Below, piece after piece: positions 8,992 to 56,474 of a stretch of DNA of 64,000 bases. Every line of letters starts with the position of its first letter. Position 1 is the stretch's first letter. The stretch is taken from contig JBAZQN010000005.1 in the NCBI GenBank assembly GCA_041645165.1, forward strand, positions 19,832 through 83,831. The letters are read 5' to 3'. Under the pieces are notes generated by a model. It saw only the letters and a list, made by a program, of their open reading frames with translations. It was not told where the DNA came from and searched no databases. The stretch is from Patescibacteria group bacterium. GTDB lineage: Bacteria > Patescibacteriota > Patescibacteriia > 2-02-FULL-49-11. Position numbers and translations under genes: made by a program.

Positions 8992-10104
8992 ATGGTGACC
9001 CGGAGAGAATTTCTAAGTGGATTATTCAGCCCGCATGGTGAAGAAGAGAAATCAGCTCCTTCATTTGAGAAACCTGTGGAACCAGAAATGGCGGAGCAAA
9101 GATTATTCGAGCGTGATACGTTTACCATCAATGATAAGAGAGTGGAATTTTACGGCATTGTGCATGATATTAAATTACCAGAAAGGTACTGGAAAGTTTT
9201 GGAGGACGCGATACAACGTGCATCTATAGTGGTACTAGAGTATGCGCCTCAAGCGTCAGGGTTATATGACCGTTCGTTCATAGCTAAACACAGAGAGTCT
9301 CTCAAGAAGTATTTTCCGGACTTCGCTGAGCTTGAGGATATAAGCGACCAGGAGATTTTTGAAGCCTTGATCCGAGAACCATCTCTTCACTTTTATCGTG
9401 AAATGGAAAATCTTGCCGCACGGCACAAGAAGCGCATCGTCACGATCGATCCGCACCTGTTAGCGCATGAGAAGATCCATGAACTGTATAAAACCGATCA
9501 GAAGGCGGATCTTATTAAGTCGCTTGGCATGGTTGGCGGTGCTACGGGAGTGCTTCTTTCCGCGATATTGCGAAAAAAATTGATAGGAGAGCACGTACGC
9601 GGCGAAAATGGTGAGAATAAAAAAGAAGAGGACTCCTCTTCAACTTACACACGGAGGCGCTTCCTTGACACCACGCTTAAGGCTGGTATTGGTATCTCTG
9701 CTACGGTAGGAGCATTGAGCACCCTTTCAAAAGGGGCGCAGATACTTGGCCATCCTGAGTACGGCAAGAAATTGGGATATGACGATCAGTTTGTCGGACG
9801 CGAGGAGAATCCATTGGGAGCTTTCTTGTATGATGAAGTTGATTTTAAAGATGTCATGATTGCGAAAGGGATGGATGAAGTGACTCAACATATGCACGCG
9901 GAAGACGAAGAGGCGGCCATGATTTATGGTTTCTTTCACAAAACTGGAATCGGCCATTATTTACGTTCGCCTCGCGAGCGAGCGGCACGAGAGCAGTTGT
10001 ACGCACCCTATAAGGGCGCCGTTGGGCCGCATAAATTGCGGATGTATGAATACGATGGTACAAAAGAGGAATGGAGGAAAATAGAAGAGAGGAATATCAC
10101 ATAA
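8992..10104 (+). CDS. Hypothetical protein (Tat-like RREFLSGL N-terminus; second RRRFLDTTLKAG motif mid-protein)
   Basis: 370-aa ORF in a lower-GC stretch with no family I can assign. Confidence 0.4.
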   Translation: MVTRREFLSGLFSPHGEEEKSAPSFEKPVEPEMAEQRLFERDTFTINDKRVEFYGIVHDIKLPERYWKVLEDAIQRASIVVLEYAPQASGLYDRSFIAKHRESLKKYFPDFAELEDISDQEIFEALIREPSLHFYREMENLAARHKKRIVTIDPHLLAHEKIHELYKTDQKADLIKSLGMVGGATGVLLSAILRKKLIGEHVRGENGENKKEEDSSSTYTRRRFLDTTLKAGIGISATVGALSTLSKGAQILGHPEYGKKLGYDDQFVGREENPLGAFLYDEVDFKDVMIAKGMDEVTQHMHAEDEEAAMIYGFFHKTGIGHYLRSPRERAAREQLYAPYKGAVGPHKLRMYEYDGTKEEWRKIEERNIT

Positions 10105-12556: not shown

Positions 12557-13390
12557 ATGAAAATTTCCGTGAACGGAAACATAGTCCTCCAAAAAGACGC
12601 GTTCATCACCATCGCCGATAAGGCAGTGTGGTACGATTTCGGCGTGTATGAAAATATCAAGGTGCTGCAAGGGACGCTCATGTGGCCGGAAATGCACATG
12701 AAACGGCTGTTCACCTCGGCAGAGGTAATAGGGCTTGAGCTTGGCGAGACGGAAGAGACGCTTCTGCGGTGGGTGTGTGAGTATGCGGAGGCATTGAAGC
12801 TGAAAGACCATATAATTAAAGTGTGCGCCTACGGCGATGCCGACAAAAATACCCGCGCGACCGTGTATCTGTTTGCCATAGGATTAACATTTTATCCCGA
12901 CCAGTTCTATGCCAAGGGCGTTGCGGCCATTACATTTGCAGGGGAGCGCAATTTGCCGAATGCTAAGTCAATGGATACGCTATTGAATTTTCTTGCATTC
13001 AGGGAGGCGAAAGCAAGGGAAGCGTTTGAAGCGCTTCTGGTAGACCATGAAGGCGACATACGCGAAGGATCGCGGTCAAACCTCTATATCGTTGAAAAAG
13101 GAATAGTCATTACGCCGCCGTTATCAGACGTTTTGGAAGGTGTCACGAGGATTTTGGTACTTAAATTGCTTAAAGAGAATGACATTGCCCTTAAGGAAGA
13201 ACGAATATCAAAAAGCCGCCTGATGGCGGCAGATGAAGTGTTTGTGACGGCAACAAGCTCCAACGTGATGTCGGTGGTGGAAATTGACGGTAAAAAAATC
13301 GGTGCGGGGACGCCGGGAGAAGTCACGAAAAGAATAATAAAGCTCTATCGCGAGATGCAGAAAGAATATCTTAGGAGTAAGAGTTCCTAA
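12557..13390 (+). CDS. Class IV aminotransferase (branched-chain / D-amino-acid aminotransferase family)
   Basis: 277 aa, with fold-type IV pattern (YEGIKV-like N-terminus, E-G-S-N-F region). Confidence 0.75.
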   Translation: MKISVNGNIVLQKDAFITIADKAVWYDFGVYENIKVLQGTLMWPEMHMKRLFTSAEVIGLELGETEETLLRWVCEYAEALKLKDHIIKVCAYGDADKNTRATVYLFAIGLTFYPDQFYAKGVAAITFAGERNLPNAKSMDTLLNFLAFREAKAREAFEALLVDHEGDIREGSRSNLYIVEKGIVITPPLSDVLEGVTRILVLKLLKENDIALKEERISKSRLMAADEVFVTATSSNVMSVVEIDGKKIGAGTPGEVTKRIIKLYREMQKEYLRSKSS

Positions 13391-13422
13391 ACATCCGTGC
13401 CATACTTTCATACGTAACGATC

Positions 13423-13818
13423 TCAATCAATGAGATTTTTTTGTTTTAGGTCATCAAAGAGGAGAAGGCTCGCGGGGGTCGTTTTTGATTTTTGGGCGTA
13501 GTTGAAGTAGTCACATTGAGCAACTTCATTACTTGGGGTGGGGATGCCATTAAAGTCCGCAGTATAGCAGGTGAGGCGAACAAAGGTGTCGATAGGTTTG
13601 CCGTACGCTTGCGCCTGAAAGGTGCCATAGTAACGGATACTTGAAGGAACGAGGTCGAGATTCAACTCTTCTCTCACCTCACGTATAAGCGTTTGTTCAT
13701 CTGATTCTCCCGCAAAGCGTTTACCTCCCGGCATGAACCATGCGTCCTTACCTTTACTCAAGGTGACAAGGATTTTTTTGTCCTTGAGATGAATCCAAGC
13801 GAGTTTGTCTATTATCAT
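13423..13818 (-). CDS. NUDIX hydrolase
   Basis: Nudix box GGKRFAGESDEQTLIREVREELNL. Confidence 0.8.
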   Translation of the reverse strand: MIIDKLAWIHLKDKKILVTLSKGKDAWFMPGGKRFAGESDEQTLIREVREELNLDLVPSSIRYYGTFQAQAYGKPIDTFVRLTCYTADFNGIPTPSNEVAQCDYFNYAQKSKTTPASLLLFDDLKQKNLID

Positions 13819-13857
13819 ACAATAGGTTTTAAACCCTTCTTTATTTCCATGATTGGT

Positions 13858-14757
13858 TTACTGTCCGCCGAGGATGAGGGGAAGGCCTTCGTTGCCTGCG
13901 CCGATGACGATTACTTTTGCATTCGGCGAGCTGGCGAGTTTTTCCGTCGCCTCAATGCCTTTCCATTTCAAGAGCTCGGCGCTTATTCCTTTCGCCACGA
14001 TGTTCTGGAAATCAGAAATGCCTTGCGCTTCGATGCGTTTGCGCTCAGCTTCCTGCTTTTCTTTTGTCAACACAAATTCCATCCGCTGACTGTCCTGCTC
14101 GGCGCGGAGCTTTTCCTCGATTGATTCAGTAAGGCGGGCGGGTAAGCCCACGCGCCGGAGCGGCGTGGATTCGACGGTGATACCGCGCGGCGCGACAATA
14201 TCCTGAAGTTGTTGGGTGATATGCACCGCGAGCTCTTCCCGCACAGAGGTGTAGAGCGCTTTAGCATCATACGCGGCGGTCACCCCGCGGCTTACGGAAC
14301 GGAATTGCGGTTCAAGGATAATGGCAGCATAGTTCGACCCAACGCTTTTATACACTTCCGTCGCTTTCTCGGGATTAAGGTGGTACAAGGCGCTGATCTC
14401 CAATTGGACCGTGAGGCCTTCTTTTGACGGTACGTCCAGCAACTCTTTGATTTCTTGGGTCTTTACGGACATTTTTATTATTTTCGCCATGGGATTTACG
14501 GGGAAATTAATTCCCGCCTGCAGGATGCGTCCTGATACATTTCCGAAAAAATCAATAACTCCCACGTTTCCCGCAGGGATAAGGGCAAAGCACGACAATA
14601 CGAGCAAGAGGCCGCCTACTACGAACGCGTTAATCTTCAGCGCGTTGGTAAATTTTATCACAGGAAGAGGATAAGGGGACACCGTGCCTTTTGGCATTTT
14701 ATTAAGAAATGTAACGAGTATTCCTGCGCCGAGTAATATAAGTGCGATCCAAAACAT
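13858..14757 (-). CDS. SPFH/band-7 (prohibitin/HflC-like) membrane protein
   Basis: N-terminal TM helix, band-7 core, and a coiled-coil C-terminus rich in E/K/R. Confidence 0.75.
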   Translation of the reverse strand: MFWIALILLGAGILVTFLNKMPKGTVSPYPLPVIKFTNALKINAFVVGGLLLVLSCFALIPAGNVGVIDFFGNVSGRILQAGINFPVNPMAKIIKMSVKTQEIKELLDVPSKEGLTVQLEISALYHLNPEKATEVYKSVGSNYAAIILEPQFRSVSRGVTAAYDAKALYTSVREELAVHITQQLQDIVAPRGITVESTPLRRVGLPARLTESIEEKLRAEQDSQRMEFVLTKEKQEAERKRIEAQGISDFQNIVAKGISAELLKWKGIEATEKLASSPNAKVIVIGAGNEGLPLILGGQ

Positions 14758-18082: not shown

Positions 18083-18166
18083 TGCCCAGAGGGAGAGTCG
18101 AACTCCCATGACCTTGCGGTCACATGGCCCTGAACCATGCGTGTCTGCCAGTTTCACCATCTGGGC
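18083..18166 (-). tRNA. tRNA-Leu (anticodon CAG), class II with long variable arm
   Basis: 84-nt cloverleaf by hand: acceptor GCCCAGA/TCTGGGC+A, anticodon stem CATGG/CCATG with loop TTCAGGG, variable stem GACC/GGTC, T-arm GGGAG-TTCGACT-CTCCC. Confidence 0.85.
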
Positions 18167-27137: not shown

Positions 27138-27671
27138 AAAGCGACGTTTTTCATTTTTTCTGCGTAAGTCAGCGGTGACGTCTCCGCCAGAGGCGGATCC
27201 GCCTATGGCGTGAAGCGTAAGTCAGCGGTTAGTGCTAGAGGATGACTTGTCAGTTTTTTTAGGCGGGTTTACACTTACCACCAGATGGCCCGTCCTCTCC
27301 ACAATTTAGGTAATAGGTTATCGCAGATCATTTCCCCTGCGCCGGCTTTTGAGTCTTTCCTCGTCCGCCGGTTTTTGTTGCTTTAAGCATTCTCCTGCTT
27401 TTCTGGTTTTTCTCAGCTCACTCAACAGATTTTTGAGAAAGTCGTCCAGAGCATGCATTATCCATCAAAGATAGAGAAAAGTATTACCATTCCGATCAAT
27501 GCGGCCATCAAACTCCTAGAGCGGGGGCAGGTGAGCTTAGCTGGCACCGTTCTTAAGACGCTCGTTGCATACCTTAACGTCCTCGCCGATAAGCATCTTA
27601 TTCCTCAACAAGATGCCATTAATTTTATCCAAACCATCGAGCAGATAAGGAGCTCGTTGTAATTCCAAATT

Positions 27672-28109
27672 ATGAATAAAAATTTTATAAAAATATTATT
27701 AGGGCTTTCTCTGTGCGGTTGTGTTGCGGGTTATATTTTGTGGTTTCCAGAGAAATTCGGAGTTTGTGCTCCTCAGGATCGATTTAGTTGTATTTATCCT
27801 CTGAGCGAACGTATTGGACAACCTCTCTTAATACTTATGTCAGGTTTGAGTATCGTTTCCTTCATATTATTATTTCTTCCAATTGTAATTTATCCCGTCT
27901 GGAAGAAATTTGTTTTTATCATTTCTCCTTTGGTATTATTATGGGTTATTTTTACCCCAGTGCAATGTAGCGGATTATTGGGAGCGTGTTTTGATAAAAA
28001 GCTTACGTCACTGGTGTCTACCGTAATATTCATAATTGGTAGCCTAACTGTATTTATAATTAAGTACATCTCTATCATCCGTGAGAAAAGAAGGGACATG
28101 GATGTATAA
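27672..28109 (+). CDS. Hypothetical small membrane protein (4 TM)
   Basis: Hydrophobic ORF in the AT-rich island. Confidence 0.4.
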   Translation: MNKNFIKILLGLSLCGCVAGYILWFPEKFGVCAPQDRFSCIYPLSERIGQPLLILMSGLSIVSFILLFLPIVIYPVWKKFVFIISPLVLLWVIFTPVQCSGLLGACFDKKLTSLVSTVIFIIGSLTVFIIKYISIIREKRRDMDV

Positions 28110-28245
28110 ATAGAAGACATAATTTAAAAATACTGCCCTATTAAAAAGGCAGTGGAGCAAATACCCCCGCTTCCCACCCCACCGCAGCCATTGCCGCTAA
28201 GGTCAAATAAGCATTCATCGCCACCATCAATAGTATAATAAGCCA

Positions 28246-28527
28246 ATGACAACATTAACAAAGAATAGTCTATATTCAATAATAGTTATTTTACTTGCAC
28301 TAGACATGCTGTTTTGGTATGGAGCTAAAAGAGATATTGAATTTATTACCGATCTAAAAGTTATAATTTTCTTCATCGCGTTTATAGGATTTGCTTTTTC
28401 GTACTACCTCTTATATAAAACGGACATCAAACACAAGGCAGTTTTGAACATTGTCATCACTATCGGCGTGCTCATCAATTTAAGATTCATTTTCCTCTGG
28501 TATATGCTTAAAGATTTTGGATTTTAA
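28246..28527 (+). CDS. Small membrane protein, paralog 1 of a tandem trio (C-terminal ...WYMLKDFGF)
   Basis: 93 aa, about 65% identical to the ORF at 28863-29141. Confidence 0.5.
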   Translation: MTTLTKNSLYSIIVILLALDMLFWYGAKRDIEFITDLKVIIFFIAFIGFAFSYYLLYKTDIKHKAVLNIVITIGVLINLRFIFLWYMLKDFGF

Positions 28528-28570
28528 TAGTAGTTATTTTCAAAGATATCTCCGGAATAATTTGTGTAAT

Positions 28571-28843
28571 ATGAAATATATATCATTGTATTTTTTGATC
28601 ATCATCTTTTTTGCTTTGCATGGAGTCTTTAATGTGGTAAACAAAAACAATATCTCTGAAACACGCCCTTTGTCTTGGTTGTTGATATTTTTAAGTTTTC
28701 TGGGATTTATCTGGGTAGTATACTACACTAAAAAGAATACCCTTCGGTTTAAATATATACCCTATATACTTTCTACTGTTGGTATCTTGCTCGCATTTGC
28801 ACAAGTTATTTTCTGGTACCTATTTAAAGACTTTGGGTTTTAA
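28571..28843 (+). CDS. Small membrane protein, paralog 2 (C-terminal ...WYLFKDFGF)
   Basis: A divergent middle copy. The start is taken at the internal Met (MKYISLYF). Confidence 0.45.
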   Translation: MKYISLYFLIIIFFALHGVFNVVNKNNISETRPLSWLLIFLSFLGFIWVVYYTKKNTLRFKYIPYILSTVGILLAFAQVIFWYLFKDFGF

Positions 28844-28862
28844 ATACAGCGAGGTTGATACT

Positions 28863-29141
28863 ATGGTGATTAAAAGGAAACAGTTATATTTCATATTAAT
28901 CGTCTTACCTGTTTTAGATGTAATTTATTGGTATGGGGATTTTCAGAATATCGAATTTATTACTGATTTATCAATTTTTTGGTTCCTCACTGCGTTCATA
29001 GGTTTTGCTTTTTCGTACTATCTATTATATAAGACGGACATCAAACATAAGGCGATTTTAAACATCGTGATTACCATCGGTTTGGTAATCAATTTCAGTC
29101 TCATTTCCCTCTGGTACATGTTTAAAGATTTTGGGTTTTAA
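28863..29141 (+). CDS. Small membrane protein, paralog 3 (C-terminal ...WYMFKDFGF)
   Basis: Shares FIGFAFSYYLLYKTDIKHKA(V/I)LNIVITIG with paralog 1. Confidence 0.5.
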   Translation: MVIKRKQLYFILIVLPVLDVIYWYGDFQNIEFITDLSIFWFLTAFIGFAFSYYLLYKTDIKHKAILNIVITIGLVINFSLISLWYMFKDFGF

Positions 29142-29172
29142 TGGGTAGTGCATTTATTTAAATAAAAATCAT

Positions 29173-32099: not shown

Positions 32100-32205
32100 T
32101 ACAGGAATTTAACAGGTGGTGCGATTCTCGAAACGGCTATTTATCTCATGAATAGCCTTTTTGGTTTGGCGTGGCGCGTGCGGGAGCCCCATGTCCATGT
32201 GGCAA

Positions 32206-32240
32206 AAATGCTGTAAATTTGCCACCTTTTTGCTTGATAC
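32206..32240 (+). terminator. Rho-independent terminator (GUGGCAAAU..AUUUGCCAC + CUUUUU) within the 85-bp duplicated module
   Basis: Hairpin plus T-run read directly. A second copy lies at about 32955-32990. Confidence 0.55.
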
Positions 32241-32356
32241 CAGCTGCCTTTTGTGGGATCATGAAGGCAAATGAAAAATATAACATGAGCTAAAATGAGA
32301 ATCTCCCATAGATCCACCAGTTGGCGGAGCAAGTATAATCTTCTATAGTTTATGAT

Positions 32357-32851
32357 ATGGTGTTAAAGGAAAATAATTTTGCCTACATTGACGCGGCAAA
32401 CCTTCACAAAGGAGTTGCGAGCTTGGGCTGGCAGCTTGATTACGCAAAATTCAGGAGATGGCTATTCGAGAAATATGGCGTGCGCGCCGCGTACTTGTTT
32501 ATCGGTTTAATAGCAAAATATAAAGAGCTTTATAAATCTCTGCAAGAGGCGGGGTTTACGCTGGTGTTCAAAGAAGTGGTATATGACGGAGAAGGCAAGC
32601 CCAAAGGGAATTGCGACGCTGATTTAGTATTGCAGGCGACGCGTGACGCCTTTGAAAATAAATTTGATACGGCAGTTATTGTCGCAAGCGATGGCGATTA
32701 TGCGGGACTGGTTAAATTCTTGCAGGAGAAACACAAGCTGTCAGTCATACTGTCTCCCAGCAATGAGAAAAAATGCTCGATTCTTCTTAAACGGACTGGA
32801 GCAAAAATTGCCTATATTAACGATCAGCGCTCCCATTTAGAATTGGCTTAA
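32357..32851 (+). CDS. NYN-domain (LabA-like) protein
   Basis: FAYIDAANLH..GNCDADLVLQA..VASDGDY. It is bracketed by about 85-bp direct repeats at 32193-32278 and 32948-33037. Confidence 0.7.
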   Translation: MVLKENNFAYIDAANLHKGVASLGWQLDYAKFRRWLFEKYGVRAAYLFIGLIAKYKELYKSLQEAGFTLVFKEVVYDGEGKPKGNCDADLVLQATRDAFENKFDTAVIVASDGDYAGLVKFLQEKHKLSVILSPSNEKKCSILLKRTGAKIAYINDQRSHLELA

Positions 32852-33056
32852 AAAGAAAAAGCCCCCGATAGGGACGGCACCCCATAAGGGTCTTTTTCGT
32901 GGTGATGGTTGCAGTATAGCAGGCGTTTACTGAAAGTCAATAGTCCATAAGAGCCCTCTCGCCCATGTGGCCCATTTGCTGCAAATGTGCCACCTTTTTA
33001 CTTGTTACTAGTTGGTTTTTATGGGATCATGAAGGTATGAAAATTAAGGCTTAATT

Positions 33057-35561
33057 ATGCAAAAGGAAGCTAATGCACGATTAAAAATAAACGCCTTACT
33101 CCAAGAGTCCGGCTGGAGATTTTTTGATGATAAAAAAGGCAAAGCCAATATTGTCTTGGAAAATAACGCCAAAATCACAAAACAAGCCATAGATGAATTT
33201 GGCAACGATTTTGAAAAAACTAACAAAGGTTTTATTGATTTTTTACTGCTCGATGAAAAGGGTTTTCCGTTTGTCGTTTTAGAAGCAAAATCGGAAGACA
33301 AAGACCCTCTCGACGGCAAAGAACAGGCGCGCCGTTATGCCCAATCACAAAACGCCCGCTTTATTATTCTTTCAAACGGCAACCTTCATTATTTATGGGA
33401 TGTAGAGCGCGGCAACCCGACAGTTATCATCACTTTCCCGACTTATGAATCCTTGAAGCATTTTGAATCTTTCAAGCCAAGTTTTGCCGCTCTTTCAGAG
33501 GAAAAAGTTGAAAGCGATTATATTGTCCAAACTCAAAATCCAAATTATCAAAAAGACCCGCGCTGGATTGATGAAACTCAAAGGCCGGATTTTATCAAAG
33601 ATCAGGATTTAAAATTTTTACGGCCTTATCAGCTTTCCGCAATTTACTCCTTGCAGAGTTCGGCGAAAAAAGGCAATGATCGCTATCTTTTTGAAATGGC
33701 AACCGGCACAGGCAAAACTCTTATTGCGGGCGGAATAATCAAGCTGTTTTTGAAAAGCGGAAACGCCAAAAGAATTTTGTTTTTAGTTGATCGCTTGGAA
33801 TTGGAAGATCAAGCGTGGAAAAATTTTGTTCGTTTTCTCAAAAGCGATTTTACCTGCGTAATTTACAAAGAAAACAAAGACGACTGGAGAAAAGCGGAAA
33901 TTATCGTTTCCACAGTTCAAAGTTTGTCATTCAACAATAAATACAAAGAGCTTTTTTCACCGACAGATTTTGATTTGTTAATATCTGATGAAGCGCACCG
34001 TTCAATCGGCGGAAATAGCCGGGCAGTTTTTGAGTATTTTGTCGGGTATAAATTAGGGCTTACCGCCACGCCGAAAGATTATCTCAAAAATATTGACCCG
34101 CAAAAAGTCAGCGAGAAAGACCCGCGCGCTTGGGAACGCCGTCAGCTTTTGGATACTTACACGACTTTTGGCTGTCCTTCCGGCGAGCCGACTTTCCGAT
34201 ACAGCTTGCTTGACGGCGTAAAAGACGGCTATCTTGTTAATCCGATTGTCGCCGACGCGAGGACAGAAATCACCACCGAACTTTTATCAGAAAAAGGTTA
34301 TTCCTTAATGGTAGAAAACGAGGAAGGAATTGAGGAAGAACAAACCTTTTTCCAAAAAGATTTTGAGCGGAAATTTTTCTCCGATAAAACAAATCAGATT
34401 TTTTGCAAAACATTTTTAGAAAATGCGATCAAAGACCCGATTAGCGGGGAAATTGGAAAGAGTATTATTTTCTGCGTGAGTCAAAATCACGCTTCAAAAA
34501 TAACGCAAACTTTAAATCAATTTGCTACGGCTCTTTGGCCCGACAAATATAATTCCGACTTTGCCGTGCAGGTTACTTCCAATATTCCCGACTCTCAACA
34601 ATTTCCTATCAATTACGCAAACAATTATCTAAACGGACAAACAAAATGGCTGGCGGGCTATAAATCAAGCAAGACAAGAGTTTGCGTAACCGTCGGCATG
34701 ATGACAACTGGCTACGATTGCCAAGATGTGATGAATCTTTGCCTTATGCGACCAATTTTTTCTCCGACTGATTTTATTCAAATCAAAGGACGCGGAACGA
34801 GAAAATATACTTTCAGCTACAAAGACGCAGACAATGAGCTGATAAAAATAGAAAAAGACACTTTCAAACTTTTTGATTTCTTCGCTAACTGCGAATATTT
34901 TGAGGAAAAATACAATTACGATCAAGTTTTGAAGCTCCCGATTAAAACCGGAACGGGAACAGGCGGCGGCGAGGGCGTAGATATTGATGAAGTAAATATT
35001 TTTAATCCCGACCCGCTCAAAACTTTTTCAGAAATTGCAGTCGGCCTTGCCGGTATGAAAGTTGACTGGAAGTTTTTTGATAAATTTGAATCGGTTGTAA
35101 AAAATGATCCGGTTGTTAAACAAAAATACGAGCAGGGCGATGTCAAAGGAGCGGAAGAATATGTTAAAACCGAAATTTTTGAAAAACCGGAAGATTATTT
35201 CAATTTGGATAAATTGCGAAAATCCGTCAAAGCAGATCGTCGCATTACGCTCAAAGAATTTATTGAAAAAATCTTTGGTGGTATAAACAAATTCAAATCA
35301 AAAGACGAATTGCTTGAAGATGAATTTGAAAAGTTTGTTTCTATCCACAAACCCGAAAATGATAATCTTTTACAAATTAAAAATTTTCTAAAATGTTATG
35401 TTGCAGATCAGGAATTTAGAACAATTATTGACAATAATCAAATCCAACGGTTATACACCTACCCAAGTTTTTCCGCTAATGAACTTAATGAATTGGGTAA
35501 GTATAAAAAGATTGTACCGGAATATGTCAAAGATTATGTTTCCTTAAATACTTTTATGTAA
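33057..35561 (+). CDS. hsdR: Type I restriction enzyme R subunit
   Basis: N-terminal PD-(D/E)xK nuclease (DFLLLDEKGFPFVVLEAKSED) and SF2 helicase motifs (ATGTGKT, DEAH: LLISDEAHRS). Confidence 0.85.
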   Translation: MQKEANARLKINALLQESGWRFFDDKKGKANIVLENNAKITKQAIDEFGNDFEKTNKGFIDFLLLDEKGFPFVVLEAKSEDKDPLDGKEQARRYAQSQNARFIILSNGNLHYLWDVERGNPTVIITFPTYESLKHFESFKPSFAALSEEKVESDYIVQTQNPNYQKDPRWIDETQRPDFIKDQDLKFLRPYQLSAIYSLQSSAKKGNDRYLFEMATGTGKTLIAGGIIKLFLKSGNAKRILFLVDRLELEDQAWKNFVRFLKSDFTCVIYKENKDDWRKAEIIVSTVQSLSFNNKYKELFSPTDFDLLISDEAHRSIGGNSRAVFEYFVGYKLGLTATPKDYLKNIDPQKVSEKDPRAWERRQLLDTYTTFGCPSGEPTFRYSLLDGVKDGYLVNPIVADARTEITTELLSEKGYSLMVENEEGIEEEQTFFQKDFERKFFSDKTNQIFCKTFLENAIKDPISGEIGKSIIFCVSQNHASKITQTLNQFATALWPDKYNSDFAVQVTSNIPDSQQFPINYANNYLNGQTKWLAGYKSSKTRVCVTVGMMTTGYDCQDVMNLCLMRPIFSPTDFIQIKGRGTRKYTFSYKDADNELIKIEKDTFKLFDFFANCEYFEEKYNYDQVLKLPIKTGTGTGGGEGVDIDEVNIFNPDPLKTFSEIAVGLAGMKVDWKFFDKFESVVKNDPVVKQKYEQGDVKGAEEYVKTEIFEKPEDYFNLDKLRKSVKADRRITLKEFIEKIFGGINKFKSKDELLEDEFEKFVSIHKPENDNLLQIKNFLKCYVADQEFRTIIDNNQIQRLYTYPSFSANELNELGKYKKIVPEYVKDYVSLNTFM

Positions 35562-35563
35562 TT

Positions 35564-36592
35564 ATGAAAAAATTACAACCTCAATCACAAATAATTATCT
35601 ATAAAGCAGAAACAGGCGAGACTAAAATCGATGTGCGTTTTGACGGTGAAACAGTGTGGTTAACGCAAAAACTTTTAGCTGAACTTTTTGGCGTTACTGT
35701 TCCTACTATCAATGAACATATTAAAAATGTTTACAAAGAAGGTGAATTAAAGGAAAGCTCAACTATTCGGAAATTCCTAATAGTTCAAAAAGAAGGCATT
35801 CGTGAAGTAGAAAGAGAGATTGATTTTTTTAATCTCGACATGATTATCTCTGTCGGTTACCGTATTAAAAGCTCTATCGCCACAGCTTTTCGTCAATGGG
35901 CAACTTTGCGACTACGCGAATATATTGTCAAGGGCTTTGTAATAGATGATGAACGATTAAAGAATCCCGATCTGCCATTTGATTATTTTGAAGAATTAAC
36001 TCGTCGTATCTCAGAAATACGCGCCTCAGAAAAGAGATTTTATAGAAAAATTACCGACATCTATGCCACCAGTGTTGACTATGACCCGACAGATGAGAAG
36101 AGTACCCTCTTTTTTAAAACAGTTCAAAACAAAGTTCATTATGCGATTACGGGAAGCACTGCGGCAGAGATAATCGCGAGCAGGGTGGATAGTAAAAAAA
36201 CAAATGTAGGCCTCACAAACTTCAGGGGCAGTAAGCCAACAAAAGAAGAAGTTTTGTTTGCCAAAAATTATTTGAGCGAGCAGGAACTTCTCGTTTTAAA
36301 TAATCTTGTCGAGCAATATCTCGTATTTGCCGAAGGACAGGCGATGCAGAGAGTGCCAATGTATATGAAGGACTGGATAGATAAACTCCACGGATTTTTA
36401 CAGATTAACAATAAAGATATTTTGAAAGATGCGGGCAAGGTCTCGCATGAGTTGGCAAAAGAGTTAGCTGAAAAAGAATATGATAAATATTACAAAAAAA
36501 GTTTAAAAGCGCCAAGCAAGGCGGACAGAGATTTTGAGGCATTCGCGAATAAAGCGATGAAACTTGTTAGCAAGGGTAAAAAGAAAAAATAA
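35564..36592 (+). CDS. rhuM: RhuM-family virulence/DNA-binding protein (typical Type I RM locus passenger)
   Basis: The N-terminal IIYKAETGETKIDVRFDGETVWLTQKLLAELFGVTVPTINEHIKNVYKEGEL pattern is characteristic of RhuM. Confidence 0.8.
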   Translation: MKKLQPQSQIIIYKAETGETKIDVRFDGETVWLTQKLLAELFGVTVPTINEHIKNVYKEGELKESSTIRKFLIVQKEGIREVEREIDFFNLDMIISVGYRIKSSIATAFRQWATLRLREYIVKGFVIDDERLKNPDLPFDYFEELTRRISEIRASEKRFYRKITDIYATSVDYDPTDEKSTLFFKTVQNKVHYAITGSTAAEIIASRVDSKKTNVGLTNFRGSKPTKEEVLFAKNYLSEQELLVLNNLVEQYLVFAEGQAMQRVPMYMKDWIDKLHGFLQINNKDILKDAGKVSHELAKELAEKEYDKYYKKSLKAPSKADRDFEAFANKAMKLVSKGKKKK

Positions 36593-36594
36593 TT

Positions 36595-39108
36595 ATGAAT
36601 TATCAAGAAATAAAACAAAAAATAAAAAATTGCCGCAACATTCTTGTTGGAATTGTTCCTAGTCCTGAAGCGCAAGTGCAACAAATCACTATTGCTTTGA
36701 TGTATAAATTTATGGATGATATGGATAAAGAAGCGCAGGAAAAACACGACGCCCCGCCAATGTTTTTTGCCGGCGAATTTGCTAAATATTCCTGGACTAA
36801 ACTTTTGTCGCCACAAGTAGGAAATCAAGAGAGATTAAATCTTTACGCGGAAGCGATTGAAAAAATGAATGAAAATAAAGACATTCCACAACTTTTTAGA
36901 GATATTTTCAAAGGAGCCTTTTTGCCATATCGCAGTCCCGAATCCCTTAGTTTATTTTTAAAAGAAATAAACGGTTTTACTTATGATAACAGTGAAAATT
37001 TAGGCAATGCCTTTGAACATTTGCTTTCAATTATGGGCAGTCAAGGCGACGCGGGGATGTTCAGAACCCCAAGACACATTATTGATTTTATTGTTGACGC
37101 GGTTGATCCGCAAAAAAATGAAAATATTTGCGATCCAGCTTGCGGATCTGCGGGTTTTCTTATTTCCGCCTACAAACACATAATAAACGCAAACACAAAA
37201 GAGAAAAAAGGCGATCTTTTATCGCCGGAAGAAAAGAAAAAACTTATTAAAAATTTTTCAGGTTATGATGTATCGCCGGATATGGTTCGTTTATCAAAAG
37301 TGAACATGTATTTTCATGGATTTCTTGACCCAACAATTTATGAATATGACACGCTTGGGCAAGAGGAAAAATGGGACGAAAGTTTTGATGTTATGCTTGC
37401 AAATCCGCCGTTTATGTCGCCAAAAGGCGGAATACGACCGCATAAAAGATTTTCCGTGCAAGCCAATCGCTCCGAAGTGCTTTTTGTGGATTATATTTTA
37501 GAGCATTTGCGTCCCAAAGGCCGCGCCGGCATTATCGTTCCGGAAGGAATTATTTTTCAATCCGCGACCGCTTATAAAGCGTTAAGAAAATTAATGATTG
37601 AAGACGGACTTTTGGCAGTTGTTTCGTTACCGGCTGGCGTTTTCAATCCATATGCCGGAGTAAAAACAAGCATTTTGTTTTTTGATAATGAAATTGCCAA
37701 GAAAACGAAAAATATTTTATTTCTGAAAATTCAAAATGACGGCTATGACCTTGGCGCGCAAAGACGAGAAATTGACAAAAACGATTTACCTTTGGCTTTG
37801 GAAATTATTAAGAAATACAAAGAGGTTCTTTCCTCCTGTCATTCCGTACTTGATACGGAATCTATAAAGAAAGAGCTGGATTCCCGTTTTCACGGGAATG
37901 ACAAATGGGGAGAAATCGCTCATCTTGTCGCCAAAGAAAAAATCGCCGAAACCGGCGACTACAATCTTTCGGGCGATAGATATAAAGAAAATAATAATTT
38001 TATAAACAGAAAATGGCCAATGGTTAGTTTAGATGAAGTTATTGATTTGAATTTTGGCGTAAGAATAACTAAAAAGAATAGCGAGGGGATAGAATACCCT
38101 GTTTATGGTGGCGGTGGTGAAAGTTTTAGAACCGATACATTTAATAGAGAGGACGAACTTATTATTTCTCGTTTTGCGATGGCAGAATGGTGTGTCCGCT
38201 TTGTAAAAGGAAAGTTTTATTTATTAGATTCAGGATTTACTTTTTCCGTGAAGCCAGAAAAGAAAAATGAAGTATTGAAAGATTATATTGATAGATATTT
38301 TCTTTCAACACAACAAAGGATTTATTCCTGCGCGCGAGGTCATGCCCAGAAAAATCTTGATGTAAAACAATTCAAGTCGCTTAAAATCCCGTTTCCTCCG
38401 ATTGAAGTCCAGAAAAAAATCGTTGAGCAGATTGAAGTTAAGCAAAACGCCATAGATCACGCCAAAGCAATCATCCAAAGTCTAGAGAGAGAGAGACGCT
38501 ATTTTGGTCAATCACTTAGAAAATTAAAAGGTGTTGAGTTGGTGAAATTGGAAAATATTTGTGATGATTTTAGAAATGGAGTTAATTTTTCCAAAGAGCA
38601 AGTAGGAAGAGGCACAAAACTTGTGAATATTAAAGACTTATTTAACGACGGATATGTTGATGTTGAAAATTTGGAACAAGTTGAATTAAAGGATAAAGAG
38701 GTGATAAAAAACACTCTCAAAGACGACGATTTATTATTTGTTCGTTCATCAGTCAAATACGAAGGTTGCGGCTACCCATCTCTTATTAGGGTAGGAAAGG
38801 AAAATATTGTTTTTTGTGGTTTCATTATCAAATGTTCGCCAAATAAAAAGAAGGTTTATCCGAAATATTTGCTGCATCTTTTAAGGTCTGAGGAATATCG
38901 GAATCAAGTTATCATTTTATCTAACCGAGCAAATATAACAAACATATCACAGGATAGAATAAAATCAGTAAAAATTATTTTGCCGTCAATTGAAACGCAA
39001 AAGCAGTTAGCAGATGAGGTAGAAAAAGAGCAAGAATTTATAAATATAAATAAGCAGTTGATTAAAATATACGAGCAAAAAATCGCTGATGTTTTAAGTG
39101 AAATATAG
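36595..39108 (+). CDS. Type I RM methyltransferase-specificity fusion (HsdM N-terminal ~470 aa + two-TRD HsdS C-terminal ~360 aa)
   Basis: N6-adenine MTase motifs (DPACGSAGFL, NPPF) followed by two target-recognition domains with HsdS-type conserved spacers (FPPIEVQKKIVEQIE.., LPSIETQKQLADEVEKE..). Confidence 0.8.
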   Translation: MNYQEIKQKIKNCRNILVGIVPSPEAQVQQITIALMYKFMDDMDKEAQEKHDAPPMFFAGEFAKYSWTKLLSPQVGNQERLNLYAEAIEKMNENKDIPQLFRDIFKGAFLPYRSPESLSLFLKEINGFTYDNSENLGNAFEHLLSIMGSQGDAGMFRTPRHIIDFIVDAVDPQKNENICDPACGSAGFLISAYKHIINANTKEKKGDLLSPEEKKKLIKNFSGYDVSPDMVRLSKVNMYFHGFLDPTIYEYDTLGQEEKWDESFDVMLANPPFMSPKGGIRPHKRFSVQANRSEVLFVDYILEHLRPKGRAGIIVPEGIIFQSATAYKALRKLMIEDGLLAVVSLPAGVFNPYAGVKTSILFFDNEIAKKTKNILFLKIQNDGYDLGAQRREIDKNDLPLALEIIKKYKEVLSSCHSVLDTESIKKELDSRFHGNDKWGEIAHLVAKEKIAETGDYNLSGDRYKENNNFINRKWPMVSLDEVIDLNFGVRITKKNSEGIEYPVYGGGGESFRTDTFNREDELIISRFAMAEWCVRFVKGKFYLLDSGFTFSVKPEKKNEVLKDYIDRYFLSTQQRIYSCARGHAQKNLDVKQFKSLKIPFPPIEVQKKIVEQIEVKQNAIDHAKAIIQSLERERRYFGQSLRKLKGVELVKLENICDDFRNGVNFSKEQVGRGTKLVNIKDLFNDGYVDVENLEQVELKDKEVIKNTLKDDDLLFVRSSVKYEGCGYPSLIRVGKENIVFCGFIIKCSPNKKKVYPKYLLHLLRSEEYRNQVIILSNRANITNISQDRIKSVKIILPSIETQKQLADEVEKEQEFININKQLIKIYEQKIADVLSEI

Positions 39109-39110
39109 TT

Positions 39111-41456
39111 ATGTTTGAAAAAGTAATCAAGCTCAAAAAATTCGGAATATTTCGCGACTTTTCATGGTGTAGTAATACTCCAGATCTTGCTCGATTCAAT
39201 TTGATTTATGGTTGGAATAAAAGTGGCAAGACGACTTTTTCGAGAATATTTTCTACTTGCGAAAAAAAGACGACAGAATTTAACCAATACCCGAAAGACA
39301 AAGAAGGAAATTTGGGCGAATTTGAGATAAAGTTAAATAACGGCACTACAATTAAGCATTTCGATTGCCAAAACGGGACAAAACAAATACGAGTATTCAA
39401 TGAAGATTTTATTGACGAGAATGTGTCATTTGATCCATCCAATCCTAGCAATCCGATTGTTTATGTAAGCGAAGTAGATATAGAGAGTAGTAAAAAGTTG
39501 AAGGAGCTAAGAGGGAAAGCTACACTATTATCTCAAAATTTTGAAGCCTATTTGAAAGCCCGCCAAAAAAGCGAAAAGGCAGAAGATGATTTTCGAAAAT
39601 CCACGGCACGCACTATCAAGGACATCGTCGGCAATCTGAAAGTTAATGATAAATACCGCGACTATGACAAGAGTGGCGTAAAGATAGCAATTGAAAATAT
39701 AGGGATTGATAATTTCACCAAATTTTCTGATGAAGATTTTGAAAAAAAGAAAAAACTTATCGGTGGCGACCCACCCAATAATCAATCACTTTTTTCAAAA
39801 TATGATCTTGGATTTTCATTCAATGGAAAAAATCTATCAAATTTTTCAGACATCCACGATGAAATCGCTACATTACTTAAACGCAAAGTGGTCGCGGAAA
39901 CTATTGACCGTCTAAAAAACGATCCCGAATTAAACAAATGGGCGCAACACGGATTCGAGCTACATAAAAACAAAGATGAAAAGAAAAAGTGTTTGTTTTG
40001 CCAAAATGAATTTTCCGAGGGTTTTTTAGATTTGTTATCAAAACATTTCAGCAACGATTACGAAAAATTACAGGACGACATAACATCGTTGATTCAGGGA
40101 TTAGTTGATCTAAAAAAGGAAAAAATTATAGAGAAAATTTCGGAGCTTTATGCAGATTTACAGAGTGGCTATAAAGATATAGCCAAAAGGCTAAATGGCA
40201 TTGTGGAAGAATTGAATGGCTGGATAGATGAGGTAACAAAAAAACTGAATAAGAAGCACGACAACCCGCTTTCAATGGCGGAAGCGCCAAAATCACCAAA
40301 AGATTTTAAGGAATCCTATGATAAAGCGACTGATGAGTTAAATTCTGTTATTGCTAGCCATAATTTGAAGGTCAGAAATCACGAACAAGAAGTAAAAACT
40401 GCGAAAGAGGAATTAGAGAACCACCTCATTGCCGTTGCTTTAAAAGAACTAGATTATCCAAAAATAAAAGCGGATTATGATTCAGACATTGAAACTGAGA
40501 AAAAAGCAAAAAATGCGGTGGAAGAAAATAATAAACAAATATTAATATTAGAAAAAGAAACATCCAATATCGGAAAAGCTGTTCAAAAAATAAACAAACA
40601 TCTGGAAGAATTTTTTGGAAGAAAGGAAATACATCTTGAATTAGACGACTTCAAAAAGGGCTATGTTATAAAACGCGATGATGATACGGCGCACAATTTG
40701 AGTAAGGGCGAAAAAAATGCCATCGCGTTTTCCTATTTTGTTGTTAAAACCCAAGAAAAAGGATTCAAAACTGATGAAGGAATAATTGTAATTGATGACC
40801 CTATTTCCAGCTTTGATTCCAATTTTATCTATCATTGCTTTTCATTGATAAAAAGTCACTTCAAAGAATCCGAGCAGTTGATCGTCTCGACTCATAATTT
40901 TGAATTTTTTAATTTGGTGAAAGATTGGTTTGAGCAAAAAAACCGGAAAGTAGAGAGCGATAATAAGAAAATTGCGAACGAGTTAGATAAAAAGCCCACC
41001 CCTTGCGAATTTTTTATGATTGAAAATACCGTTGAGAATGAAAAACGGTGCGCCTCAATCGTACCATTGGAAGAAACTTTGAGGAAATTCAAGTCAGAGT
41101 ACCATTTTCTTTTTTCTAGATTGAATCAGTTTATCGCTGCAGGTTCGCCGAACTACGCCGACTTTTACACTATCGGAAATATAGCAAGAAGATTTTTAGA
41201 AATTTACATAAACTTTAAAATTCCAACCACCGGCGACTTAAAAAGCAGGGTTGATCAACTTGATACACAGACAGTAAGTGACACGGAAAAAGATAAGGTG
41301 TATAGATTAATTCAGGAATTTTCGCATGGGCTTGATCCTGTGAGCACGATTGAGCACAAGGACAAAAGCGAGATACAAGGTGCAATTAAAGTATTGCTGA
41401 AAATGGTTGAGGAGTCGGACAATAAGCATTTCGAATCATTGAAAAGTACGTTATAA
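39111..41456 (+). CDS. RloC/PrrC-like coiled-coil ABC ATPase (candidate anticodon nuclease / abortive-infection effector)
   Basis: Walker A GWNKSGKTT, about 350 aa of coiled coil with a CLFCQNEF CxxC zinc-hook-like motif, Walker B IVIDDPISSFD, H-loop STHN, and a C-terminal region with ARRFLE (R-x3-E) and an ...EFSHGLD motif reminiscent of the PrrC nuclease triad. It sits immediately downstream of the Type I RM genes. Confidence 0.5.
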   Translation: MFEKVIKLKKFGIFRDFSWCSNTPDLARFNLIYGWNKSGKTTFSRIFSTCEKKTTEFNQYPKDKEGNLGEFEIKLNNGTTIKHFDCQNGTKQIRVFNEDFIDENVSFDPSNPSNPIVYVSEVDIESSKKLKELRGKATLLSQNFEAYLKARQKSEKAEDDFRKSTARTIKDIVGNLKVNDKYRDYDKSGVKIAIENIGIDNFTKFSDEDFEKKKKLIGGDPPNNQSLFSKYDLGFSFNGKNLSNFSDIHDEIATLLKRKVVAETIDRLKNDPELNKWAQHGFELHKNKDEKKKCLFCQNEFSEGFLDLLSKHFSNDYEKLQDDITSLIQGLVDLKKEKIIEKISELYADLQSGYKDIAKRLNGIVEELNGWIDEVTKKLNKKHDNPLSMAEAPKSPKDFKESYDKATDELNSVIASHNLKVRNHEQEVKTAKEELENHLIAVALKELDYPKIKADYDSDIETEKKAKNAVEENNKQILILEKETSNIGKAVQKINKHLEEFFGRKEIHLELDDFKKGYVIKRDDDTAHNLSKGEKNAIAFSYFVVKTQEKGFKTDEGIIVIDDPISSFDSNFIYHCFSLIKSHFKESEQLIVSTHNFEFFNLVKDWFEQKNRKVESDNKKIANELDKKPTPCEFFMIENTVENEKRCASIVPLEETLRKFKSEYHFLFSRLNQFIAAGSPNYADFYTIGNIARRFLEIYINFKIPTTGDLKSRVDQLDTQTVSDTEKDKVYRLIQEFSHGLDPVSTIEHKDKSEIQGAIKVLLKMVEESDNKHFESLKSTL

Positions 41457-41571
41457 TAAATTTGATGTCCCGCCGTCCGCTCGCCAAAAATTCTGTTTCG
41501 CTCCGCAGGAGCGATGATGTGGAAAGCGTTTCCGCCGTCTTGGTATCAAGACATCAAAGCAAAATAATCTT

Positions 41572-42093
41572 ATGCCAGATGATAATTTAACTACTGAATC
41601 ACCAGCGGCGGAGGTGCCGGTAGAGATGCCGGTGGTGCCAAACGAACCGATTCCGCCAGTCAAAATTCCACCTGTGACACCAAGCGAACCGGTGCCGGCA
41701 TCAGCGCCGCCGACAACGGAAGTGCCGGTTGAGGTTAGCCCCAGTGCCTCGGCAGTAGCTCCAACCGTTGTAACCTCGCCCACGCCGCCGCCCGCGCAAG
41801 CCGAACCAGCGCCTGCCATCGGGTTAGCGCCGGCCGTGAATTTAAAGTCATTGTTGGCGAAGGCCATGGAGACCATCAGATTCCGCAGAAATGCGAAGCT
41901 GGAAAAAATCATGAAATTTGTGGGCGAAAAAGGCTCTGTCACTAATGACCAGGCGCAAATGCTGCTCCGCATTTCCGATGCCACCGCAAGTCGCTATCTT
42001 TTGACGCTCACCCAACAGGGGCGTCTGCGGAGGACCGGCAAGACATCGGGCAGCCGCTATGAGTCGACAGTCGGCTCAAATGGAGGGAATTGA
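41572..42093 (+). CDS. Hypothetical Pro-rich protein with C-terminal winged-helix-like domain
   Basis: N-terminal PxxP-rich low complexity and a C-terminal KIMKFVGEKGSVTNDQAQMLLRISDATASRYLLTLTQQGRL. Confidence 0.4.
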   Translation: MPDDNLTTESPAAEVPVEMPVVPNEPIPPVKIPPVTPSEPVPASAPPTTEVPVEVSPSASAVAPTVVTSPTPPPAQAEPAPAIGLAPAVNLKSLLAKAMETIRFRRNAKLEKIMKFVGEKGSVTNDQAQMLLRISDATASRYLLTLTQQGRLRRTGKTSGSRYESTVGSNGGN

Positions 42094-43283: not shown

Positions 43284-43492
43284 ATACTCGATTGCTATTC
43301 AAATTCCGATTCTATCGTCATTCCCGCCCCGTATCACGGTACGGGGCAGGCTCCAGCGGGAATCCAGACGCCGTCCTCGACCGAGATCGGGGAACACCAA
43401 AAGAAAATAGATTTTTTTGTTTGTTTTTTATGTCTGGATTCCAGATCAGGTCTGGAATGACAATCGGAACTGGGTTGGCAATGTAGTATAAT
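43284..43492 (+). mobile_element. MITE-like repeat, copy 2 (subfamily A)
   Basis: About 90% identical to 5011-5242. Its right end supplies TAGTATAAT 10 nt upstream of the methyltransferase ATG. Confidence 0.8.
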
Positions 43493-45155: not shown

Positions 45156-45314
45156 AATTCCGATCGTCATTCCAGACTTGATCTGGAATCCAGAAACAAA
45201 AATAAACAAAAACCGATCGATTTTTATGTTTGTTTTGGTTTTCTAGATCCCGCATCTTAAGTGCGGGATGACGGTGAGGATCGGAATTTGAATAGCAATT
45301 GAGTATAACAAGCA
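45156..45314 (-). mobile_element. MITE-like repeat, copy 3 (subfamily B, inverted orientation)
   Basis: Same termini as copies 1, 2 and 5 but a different core (cgcacttaagatgcgggatctagaaaac...). A TTGACA-N17-ATAGGA promoter-like sequence abuts it at 45319-45347, facing the thrC-like gene. Confidence 0.7.
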
Positions 45315-47381: not shown

Positions 47382-47491
47382 GTCATCCCCGCGAAGGCGG
47401 GGATCTAGAAAACAAAAATAAAAAATAGATCGATTTTGCTGTTTATTTTTTGTCTGGATTCCTGCCTGCGCAGGAATGACAATATTGAAGG
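47382..47491 (+). mobile_element. MITE-like repeat, copy 4 (subfamily B, left arm missing)
   Basis: gtcatccccgcgaaggcggggatctagaaaac...tgtctggattcc..caggaatgacaat matches the copy 3 core and right terminus. Confidence 0.65.
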
Positions 47492-56271: not shown

Positions 56272-56474
56272 ATTGCTATTCAATTCCGATTCCATCGTCA
56301 TCCCCGCCCCGTATCAAGGTACGGGGCAAGCTCCAGCGGGAATCCAGACGCCGTCCTCGACCGAGATCGGGGAAAACCAAAAGAAAATTGATCTTTTTGT
56401 TTGTTTTATGTCTGGATTCCAGATCCCGGTCTGGAATGACAATCGGAATTGGGTTGGCAAATTAGTATATTATA
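56272..56474 (+). mobile_element. MITE-like repeat, copy 5 (subfamily A)
   Basis: About 90% identical to copies 1 and 2. It lies between the convergent aminotransferase and leuB genes. Confidence 0.8.

Follow-up and report, generated by a model that had tools for sequence, protein, structure and literature searches.

A low-GC Type I restriction-modification operon with a fused HsdM-HsdS protein, RhuM and an RloC-type ATPase in a Patescibacteria group bacterium contig

The window analysed here, a stretch of 64,000 nucleotides (nt) of contig JBAZQN010000005.1 from a Patescibacteria group bacterium assembly, harbours a low-GC segment with five plus-strand genes. These are an NYN gene (32357-32851, 164 amino acids (aa), GC 0.438), hsdR (33057-35561, 834 aa, GC 0.38), rhuM (35564-36592, 342 aa, GC 0.37), a fused hsdM-hsdS gene, here hsdMS (36595-39108, 837 aa, GC 0.357), and rloC (39111-41456, 781 aa, GC 0.349). 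The initial annotation had described the same five genes as a low-GC defence island. Its open reading frames (ORFs) proved exact, and the four core genes, hsdR to rloC, have 35-38% GC against 52-57% in the flanks. The ORFs are unbroken and the last four are separated by 2 nt each; therefore, hsdR-rhuM-hsdMS-rloC is predicted to be one tight operon. By its composition the segment 33057-41456 is foreign, and it is read as a horizontally acquired four-gene anti-phage operon. In the deposited annotation (proteins MFA4872829-49) the five genes bear generic names only, such as 'N-6 DNA methylase' and 'AAA family ATPase'. Searches with hidden Markov models recovered every proposed family (ResIII/HSDR_N, N6_Mtase, two Methylase_S, AAA_13, PF13310 and PF01936), and the contig proteins matched the PADLOC models REase_I, MTase_I, Specificity_I, PDC-S05 and PDC-S06.

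HsdR possesses ResIII (E 1e-39) and HSDR_N/HSDR_N_2 domains, and matched REase_I with E 8e-60. Its motifs are unbroken, including the D..EAK nuclease motif, GTGKT, DEAH, TAT, and QIKGRGTR, which corresponds to QxxGRGxR. HsdR thus combines the N-terminal PD-(D/E)xK nuclease and the superfamily 2 (SF2) translocase motifs that define Type I restriction subunits. The best NCBIfam model was EcoAI/FtnUII, with 235.6 bits against a cut-off of 550, which places HsdR outside this equivalog and outside Type IB (EcoAI) proper. Because of this score, HsdR is classed by sequence as EcoAI-like (Type IB-like) and not as a member of the EcoAI family. It is 94% identical over 834 aa to HsdR of locus L001, the closest relative of the HsdR and HsdMS pair.

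The product of hsdMS possesses an N6_Mtase domain (E 1e-49) and two Methylase_S stretches, and is matched by the MTase_I and Specificity_I models of PADLOC. A gamma-class N6-adenine methyltransferase (MTase) occupies approximately residues 1-470 and is followed, without a linker, by an S moiety with two target recognition domains (TRDs) at approximately residues 471-837. The motifs DPACGSAGF and NPPF are present, so that the gamma-class MTase and the two-TRD specificity component of Type I systems are both found. The S part also matches the PADLOC model for Type IIG (E 8e-42). The M and S subunits, separate in the R2M2S1 arrangement of Type I enzymes, are here a single ORF of 837 aa, as had been proposed. 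A frameshift or assembly artefact is ruled out by the identical 837-aa ORF in independent contigs, including L005 (exact-sequence look-up), and by the fused architecture of hundreds of relatives. HsdMS is approximately 90% identical to the M-S protein of L001. An HsdM fused to an HsdS with one or two TRDs, together with a separate HsdR, is what Roberts et al. (2012) defined as Type IMS, and the locus corresponds to this definition.

The protein search with HsdMS revealed this architecture in more than 100 clusters of 790-890 aa, and also single-TRD forms of approximately 620-650 aa. A scan of metagenome contigs seeded with the M-S protein, and hence unbiased toward RloC, gave more than 556 matches, from which 80 loci were kept. 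Out of 78 M-S ORFs, 66 measure 800-899 aa, and a relative of HsdR lies directly upstream of M-S in all 52 loci with enough sequence. A second M-like gene, that is, a separate hsdM, was found in none of the 80. From these sequences, fusion is the rule within this HsdM clade, and the fused M-S proteins are a large, coherent natural family that matches the architecture known as Type IMS. The description of the fusion as uncommon therefore holds for characterised Type I enzymes and does not hold within its own clade. Some cassettes among the relatives depart from the intact layout. In L014 (3060-5540) and L040 (7543-9995) an M-half-S fusion of 631-636 aa is followed by a separate S-like fragment ahead of RloC. 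In L022 (7612-12364) the M and S ORFs are split and RloC is split as well, and RloC is also split in L057 (10001-12336). These four variants are probably decaying copies.

In the literature searched, Type IMS was described only as engineered enzymes; REBASE lay outside this search and may already list natural fusions. Roberts et al. obtained the fusion, and coined the term, by removing the frameshift between hsdM and hsdS of EcoKI (MSFusion; PMC3510504), and Bower et al. remade it in a Staphylococcus aureus system as CC398-1 MSfus (PMC6158711). Both engineered fusions restrict and modify when a separate HsdR is given, and their second M was supplied as added HsdM, released as a clipped fragment, or possibly provided by dimerisation to (MSfus)2 (PMC3510504, PMC6158711). 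The window shares with them an HsdM fused in frame to a two-TRD HsdS and a separate HsdR. However, the engineered enzymes are laboratory constructs derived from Type IA and S. aureus systems, whereas the lineage in the window is natural and widespread, its HsdR is EcoAI-like, and the cassette contains no separate hsdM. The single-chain Type IIB/IIG enzymes AloI and CjeI likewise join one MTase domain to two TRDs and present the same puzzle of one M to two TRDs, termed 'a mystery' for both enzymes in a review of Type I systems. AloI and CjeI, however, carry the nuclease in the same chain and lack a translocating HsdR, while R in the window is a separate SF2 motor subunit.

Between hsdR and hsdMS, rhuM encodes a protein that covers positions 1-248 of the 252 positions of PF13310 (Virulence_RhuM, E 1.1e-106), which is practically the full length of the profile. 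It also matches the PADLOC candidate PDC-S05 with E 2e-137. RhuM is a putative toxin or accessory defence gene. It occupies the slot held elsewhere by Fic/DOC, in line with Anantharaman et al. 2013 (PMC3710099), who already described neighbourhoods of restriction-modification (RM), RhuM and PrrC/RloC-like genes.

The 781-aa protein encoded by rloC matched AAA_13 over residues 11-763 (E 1.8e-127) and the PADLOC candidate PDC-S06 (E 1e-164). RloC proteins have been defined by PrrC-like ATP-binding cassette (ABC) motifs, a coiled-coil insert with a CXXC zinc hook, the motif Arg-X3-Glu-X36-52-His, often with Ser before the His, and a length of 658-897 aa, roughly double that of PrrC (PMC2610378). 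Among the ABC motifs we found Walker A GWNKSGKT at residues 34-41 (K40), LSKGE at 530-534, Walker B IIVIDD at 558-563 (D562/D563), and T594-H595. A coiled-coil insert of approximately 380 aa splits the ATPase and carries the hook C294-L-F-C297, which shows no change in the 113 homologues, all at least 50% identical, that were used for conservation. The C-terminal triad R693-x3-E697-x41-S738-H739 agrees with the definition in its spacing and its Ser-His signature, and 781 aa lies within the published size range. Across the homologues there is no variation at G34, K40, D562, D563, H595, R693, R694, S738, and H739, and position 697 has E in 97 sequences and D in the other 16; the C-terminal 160 residues belong to the best-conserved parts of the protein. 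The hook context HK..C.FC...L..HFSN resembles the published alignment (PMC2610378 supplement, residues 121-540, in a text scrambled by optical character recognition). Several homologues carry the Joint Genome Institute name 'wobble nucleotide-excising tRNase'. All motifs of the architecture outlined in the initial annotation (Walker A, a coiled coil with CxxC, Walker B/H-loop, and a C-terminal R-x3-E...H) were located.

In the AlphaFold (AF2) model of this protein, with a predicted local distance difference test (pLDDT) score of 77.5, long helices (121-173 and 399-502) split the ABC head, and the CxxC falls in a loop at the apex that is modelled with low confidence; the best PDB fold matches of the model are SMC/Rad50 heads with coiled coils. 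Modelled by itself, the C-terminal domain (pLDDT 80.9) forms an all-helical bundle; its best Foldseek match, to a HEPN toxin with a probability of 0.85, is weak. Sequence searches of the PDB, with the protein and with an 18-sequence profile, gave no meaningful match, and the PDB offers no structure of RloC or PrrC to compare it with. A reading of R732...H739 as the HEPN motif Rx4-6H was rejected, because position 732 is K, R or N among homologues. According to the published sequence-level definition, the protein is of the RloC type, a Rad50/SMC-like ABC ATPase with a putative HEPN-type anticodon-nuclease domain.

A likeness to RloC/PrrC had been suggested for this protein, and the RloC part of it stands on the hook, the triad and the size, while the PrrC part does not. 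PrrC proteins measure 341-416 aa, possess no coiled-coil/zinc-hook insert, and are embedded in a classical three-subunit Type IC hsd locus. The 781-aa protein is double this size and carries the insert, the PADLOC model of PrrC aligns only to its ATPase C-lobe (residues 457-626), and its gene is located 3' of R-RhuM-MS in an operon with an EcoAI-like HsdR. Identity with PrrC is ruled out by the size, the insert and the confined match. What the locus has in common with PrrC and EcoprrI is an ABC-ATPase with an anticodon nuclease of HEPN type, putative in the window protein, in an operon with a Type I system, and the concept of a second-line suicide module. Compared by published residue numbers, K40/C294/D562/R693/E697/H739 of the window protein correspond to K44/C291/D572/R692/E696/H737 of GkaRloC from Geobacillus kaustophilus (COG4694). 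The window RloC differs in belonging to a different clade and in being juxtaposed, at 2 nt, to an RM operon. An alignment search of GTDB with RloC gave 76 loci, with a best match of 76%; no Geobacillus, Acinetobacter or Campylobacter locus was among the results, and the clade of the window RloC is mostly from uncultured phyla.

A classical embedding in Type I loci, as stated for proteins of this kind, holds for PrrC. For RloC, the original survey linked just 8 of 72 orthologues to Type I or III loci (PMC2610378), and about half of the 48 upstream neighbours of RloC homologues examined here are restriction or modification proteins of many types, namely Type I/IMS, AlwI, DpnII, Eco57I/MmeI-like, Type ISP, GmrSD, and McrBC. 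The closest relatives of the window RloC (76-81% identical) adjoin unrelated systems: two N6_N4 methylases with unknown genes in a Type II/III-like setting, a PLD-SNF2 gene with an Eco57I-like methylase, or a place near an Mrr gene. The order HsdR-(RhuM)-M/S-RloC was found in approximately 10 of the 76 GTDB loci, from different phyla, with HsdR 65-71% identical and M and S mostly fused. Among the M-S-seeded loci, BLAST detected RloC downstream of M-S in 0 of 58, distant AAA_13 proteins lie downstream in 2 of 53, and RhuM was seen once. L001 possesses no RhuM, and carries genes for an OLD-family nuclease and an SNase in the position of RloC. Elsewhere, the slot after MS holds DUF4145, RadC, SIR2, OLD/AAA_15/21, UvrD, GmrSD, KAP NTPase or kinase genes, and Fic/DOC, PIN, KilA-N, PD-(D/E)xK or extra methylase genes occupy the slot that separates R from MS. 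These distributions indicate that RhuM and RloC are modular, exchangeable accessories of the R-MS core. With respect to PDC-S05, PDC-S06 and the neighbourhoods of Anantharaman et al. 2013, the window presents the same two accessory families in the same context, and adds a further case, here with a fused M-S backbone.

The NYN gene, upstream of the operon, matches PF01936 (E 4.8e-14) and encodes the acidic motifs IDAAN, DADL, and SDGD of this family. Its match to the PADLOC candidate HEC-09 is weak (E 4e-6), and no protection was seen when the HEC-09 NYN protein, the only defence candidate related to it, was assayed. The gene has its own small terminator, and its product is a putative metal-dependent RNase from a separate transcription unit. 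NYN was considered as a member of the cassette and rejected, since it is unlinked in the relatives bar one homologue. This homologue, 48% identical, lies at 17764-18162 in L038, a Parcubacteria locus with HsdR-RhuM-M-half-S-RloC, approximately 10 kb downstream; it is the sole other co-occurrence and probably coincidental.

As anticipated by the initial annotation, NYN is bracketed by two copies of an approximately 85-nt terminator-promoter module. Copy 1, upstream of NYN (32195-32281, plus strand), consists of a GTGGCAAA-N11-TTTGCCAC hairpin, a T-run, and the promoter-like TTGATA-N17-TG-GATCAT. Copy 2 (32963-33047, plus strand) has the same hairpin and T-run with TTGTTA-N17-TG-GATCAT, and ends 10 nt before the hsdR ATG. 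Each hairpin has an 8-bp stem. The copies align without gaps over 73 nt at 82% identity (32195-32267 and 32963-33035), and one 2-nt indel extends the match to approximately 85 nt. In the window the sub-patterns of the module occur at these two sites only, against approximately zero expected, and outside the window the module was found only in contigs of the same genome and not in other loci. A mobile promoter element was rejected. Because the module is not conserved upstream of L001 hsdR, is not dispersed in the window and is absent from other loci, the pair reads as a local duplication that would give NYN and the operon similar promoters. Copy 2 is the probable promoter and 5' untranslated region of the hsdR-rhuM-hsdMS-rloC operon. 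A role of its inverted repeat as an operator is speculation. Rfam gave no family match for repeats in the window, which thus do not correspond to a described RNA.

The best explanation of the whole, to which we assign a probability of about 80%, is an acquired natural Type IMS operon with RhuM and RloC as accessories and with NYN as a separate gene. From the gene content, motifs, architecture, fold class, family distribution, and modularity of the locus, we infer its activities, assembly, and trigger, and the relation of RloC to the RM system, as follows. The operon would be transcribed probably from the promoter-like module at 32963-33047. The HsdM-HsdS fusion would recognise a bipartite target via its two TRDs and methylate adenine, as suggested by the NPPF motif. 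The separate EcoAI-like HsdR would dock on the fusion, translocate DNA with ATP, and cut unmodified DNA. Because there is no second hsdM, the second MTase of an M2S1-type core must come from a further copy of the fusion, which would leave one S moiety idle in an (MS)2, or, as in the engineered fusions, from a fragment clipped off. By analogy with the Geobacillus protein, the nuclease of RloC would be held off by the zinc hook and the ATPase region and switched on by ATP hydrolysis with DNA ends. Activated RloC would then excise the wobble nucleotide of tRNA as an abortive-infection backstop, as the biochemistry of GkaRloC suggests; in GkaRloC a DNA-dependent ATPase activates the nuclease, and mutations of the hook de-repress it. 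RhuM would be a putative toxin riding between R and MS, and the NYN RNase gene a separately acquired and separately terminated unit with a diverged copy of the promoter module.

Several points weigh against this explanation. The evidence for homology to a characterised RloC is indirect, namely the colinear motif positions and the RloC name given to homologues. The match that suggests a HEPN fold for the C-terminal domain is weak, with a Foldseek E of 0.19. No demonstrated defence function of RhuM was found in the literature searched. The stoichiometry of a protein with one M and two TRDs is a puzzle even for the engineered and the Type IIB analogues. The absence of RloC after M-S in the 58 M-S-seeded loci gives no evidence for an obligate functional coupling to this RM type. 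Lastly, the repeat-like insert in the hsdM linker, described below, could impair the methylase, and the system may then be inactive.

With regard to the trigger, RloC could be coupled to restriction in the manner of PrrC, bound and silenced by the R-MS complex and freed when a phage anti-restriction protein inactivates this complex, instead of responding to its own zinc-hook/ATPase switch alone. PrrC is coupled to EcoprrI in this way, and the 2 nt between the MS stop and the RloC start recur equally tight in L024, L043, and L057, and become an overlap in L023, with RloC copies that are just 44-66% identical. The HsdR-(RhuM)-MS-RloC order in different phyla also speaks for such a coupling. Nevertheless, RloC is exchanged freely, as seen from the varied neighbours of its closest relatives; the closest R-MS relative has OLD in its place, it is missing after M-S throughout the 58 M-S-seeded loci, and the switch of GkaRloC is autonomous. 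We consider PrrC-style coupling possible but doubtful, and prefer the acquired Type IMS operon in which RloC would be governed by its own switch.

A more far-reaching proposal extends the preferred explanation from the locus to its family. HsdR and the HsdM-HsdS fusion would be a distinct, so far uncharacterised natural Type I lineage ('Type IMS') with an EcoAI-like motor and no free M subunit. Its assembly would be asymmetric, with either an (MS)2 in which one specificity moiety is idle or a processed M fragment. Exchangeable abortive-infection modules would use this lineage as their standard docking platform, and where RloC is present the fusion protein would physically control the nuclease. 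Taken with all its parts, we regard this proposal as unlikely.

The insert in the hsdM linker is a miniature element (37826-37913, plus strand) similar to miniature inverted-repeat transposable elements (MITEs) and repetitive extragenic palindromic (REP) sequences. It contains two hairpins (z = -3.5), has the termini GTCATTCC and GGAATGAC, and encodes ...SSCHSVLDTESIKKELDSRFHGNDKWGE..., which corresponds approximately to residues 412-439 of HsdMS. In an alignment with 11 fused homologues the element was missing from all 11. Compared with L001, approximately 88 nt stand in place of approximately 46 nt of variable linker, a net gain of 42 nt (14 aa) that keeps the frame. The linker, which connects the catalytic domain to the C-terminal tail motif, is the sole poorly conserved one of the M part. 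The element shares its termini with MITE/REP-like repeats of the host, 165-188 nt long, and because it belongs to this family of the host's own repeats, the insertion postdates the arrival of the cassette.

Full copies of the host repeat are located at 5035-5222, 43307-43472, and approximately 56290-56450, all intergenic, and hairpin units were also found at 45166-45189 and 47458-47480. The repeat is bounded by inverted repeats, CGATTCCATCGTCATTCC ... GGAATGACAATCGGAAT, and several hairpins lie within it. The first two copies lie just upstream of plus-strand genes, which start at 5243 and 43503. The pattern of the hairpin unit occurs 7 times against 0.05 expected, and no Rfam family matched it.

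The insertion raises the alternative of a decaying remnant, in which the methylase was crippled, restriction was lost, and the ORFs are intact only since the event is recent. In its favour, the insert is unique to the window copy among the 12 aligned proteins and was acquired after the cassette, and relatives such as L022 and L057 are visibly decayed. However, the insertion keeps the frame in a poorly conserved linker, R, M, RloC, and NYN retain every catalytic motif intact, and identical sequences are present in two datasets. Moreover, an inactive M beside an intact R would be lethal, which makes a dead M next to a fully intact 834-aa HsdR implausible. A remnant is hence quite improbable, and hsdMS is expected to be still functional, given the position in the linker, the kept frame, and the intact hsdR.

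The idea that the 781-aa protein is a non-nuclease SMC/Rad50-like ATPase of DNA repair or the plasmid-associated AAA_13 kind, in which the likeness to anticodon-nuclease motifs is coincidental, could draw on its PDB fold matches to SMC/Rad50 heads only, on the restriction of the PrrC model to the ATPase C-lobe and on the weak HEPN match, but is very hard to reconcile with the conserved C-terminal region and its invariant R693, R694, S738, and H739 (with E or D at 697), the exact agreement of triad spacing and Ser-His signature with the published RloC definition, the automatic annotation of homologues as RloC, and a context of restriction systems instead of repair operons. The related prospect of a non-nuclease SMC/RecF/OLD protein, named in advance as the finding that would overturn the assignment, is ruled out by the full RloC architecture including the nuclease triad. 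The preferred explanation thus remains the acquired Type IMS operon with RhuM and RloC accessories.

The edges of the low-GC segment are distinct. At its left edge, a terminator-like hairpin with a 10-bp stem and a TTTTT tail (32135-32157, plus strand) marks the end of the upstream TSP_3-repeat gene, and GC drops there from 0.52 to 0.42. The right edge is abrupt, at 41457. The TSP_3 gene has a GC of 0.522 and the downstream ORF (orf173) 0.573, against 0.349-0.38 in the four core genes, and NYN is intermediate (0.438). The neighbours are core genes, with uvrC, uvrA, and a DUF2339 gene upstream, and ham1, ilvA-like, ilvE, and ilvD downstream. The search for att-like flanking repeats gave just chance matches of 11-12 nt at the island edges, and a domain scan of the neighbouring genes detected no integrase or transposase adjoining the cassette.

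The gene junctions and identical proteins are also present in two further assemblies (exact-sequence look-up). Both are short-read assemblies interrupted within the cassette, L083/L005 (ERZ27249422) and L084/L006 (SRR8449827), and the window spans the gap. In both, one contig stops 165-624 nt into hsdR, and the next begins inside hsdR (L005) or inside hsdMS (L006). Lower coverage of low-GC DNA, or differences between strains at the island, might explain the break. For HsdR itself the exact-sequence look-up gave no record, probably owing to the interruption of the short-read assemblies inside hsdR.

Directly after rloC, orf173 (41572-42093, 173 aa, GC 0.57) has weak winged-helix matches to HTH_DeoR (E 0.004) and to a PHROG 'DNA binding protein' (E 9e-5). 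Between uvrA and the DUF2339 gene, at approximately 27150-29170, GC is low again (0.33-0.43) over a stretch with five small ORFs of 69-145 aa that are called genes of L083. These ORFs have no Pfam or PHROG match apart from one weak holin-like match, and the stretch may be another small foreign insert. Other dips in GC are found at 63001-64000 (to 0.35), at the right end of the window, and at 9001-10000 and 13001-14000 (both to 0.46). ARAGORN detected a tRNA-Leu(CAG) of 84 nt on the minus strand at 18083-18166; an Rfam scan of the whole window at the gathering threshold gave no family, tRNA included. The core genes of the window have 52-58% GC and include ilvA-like, ilvE, ilvD, ilvC, and full uvrA and uvrC, which is unusual for the reduced genomes of the Candidate Phyla Radiation. 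The label 'Patescibacteria group bacterium' may be generic, or the bin may be mixed. Many relatives of the cassette are located in Patescibacteria metagenome-assembled genomes.

The components of the locus all belong to described families and their combination has been described before, so that the locus is a well-preserved but ordinary defence island, and the natural Type IMS lineage with its accessory slots is the only aspect beyond routine. To the cataloguing of defence systems it adds little, since tools such as PADLOC would already flag the Type I RM system, PDC-S05, and PDC-S06, and the neighbourhood has been known since 2013. The in-frame miniature element is an example of a host repeat that has settled in a coding linker and left the gene unbroken. 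For restriction enzymology, the laboratory-built Type IMS exists naturally as a large family, which offers material for how one MTase domain serves two TRDs. The two defined accessory slots, in the gap between R and MS and after MS, exchange RhuM, Fic, PIN, RloC, OLD, and SIR2, and provide a clean system for testing the coupling of passengers to restriction.

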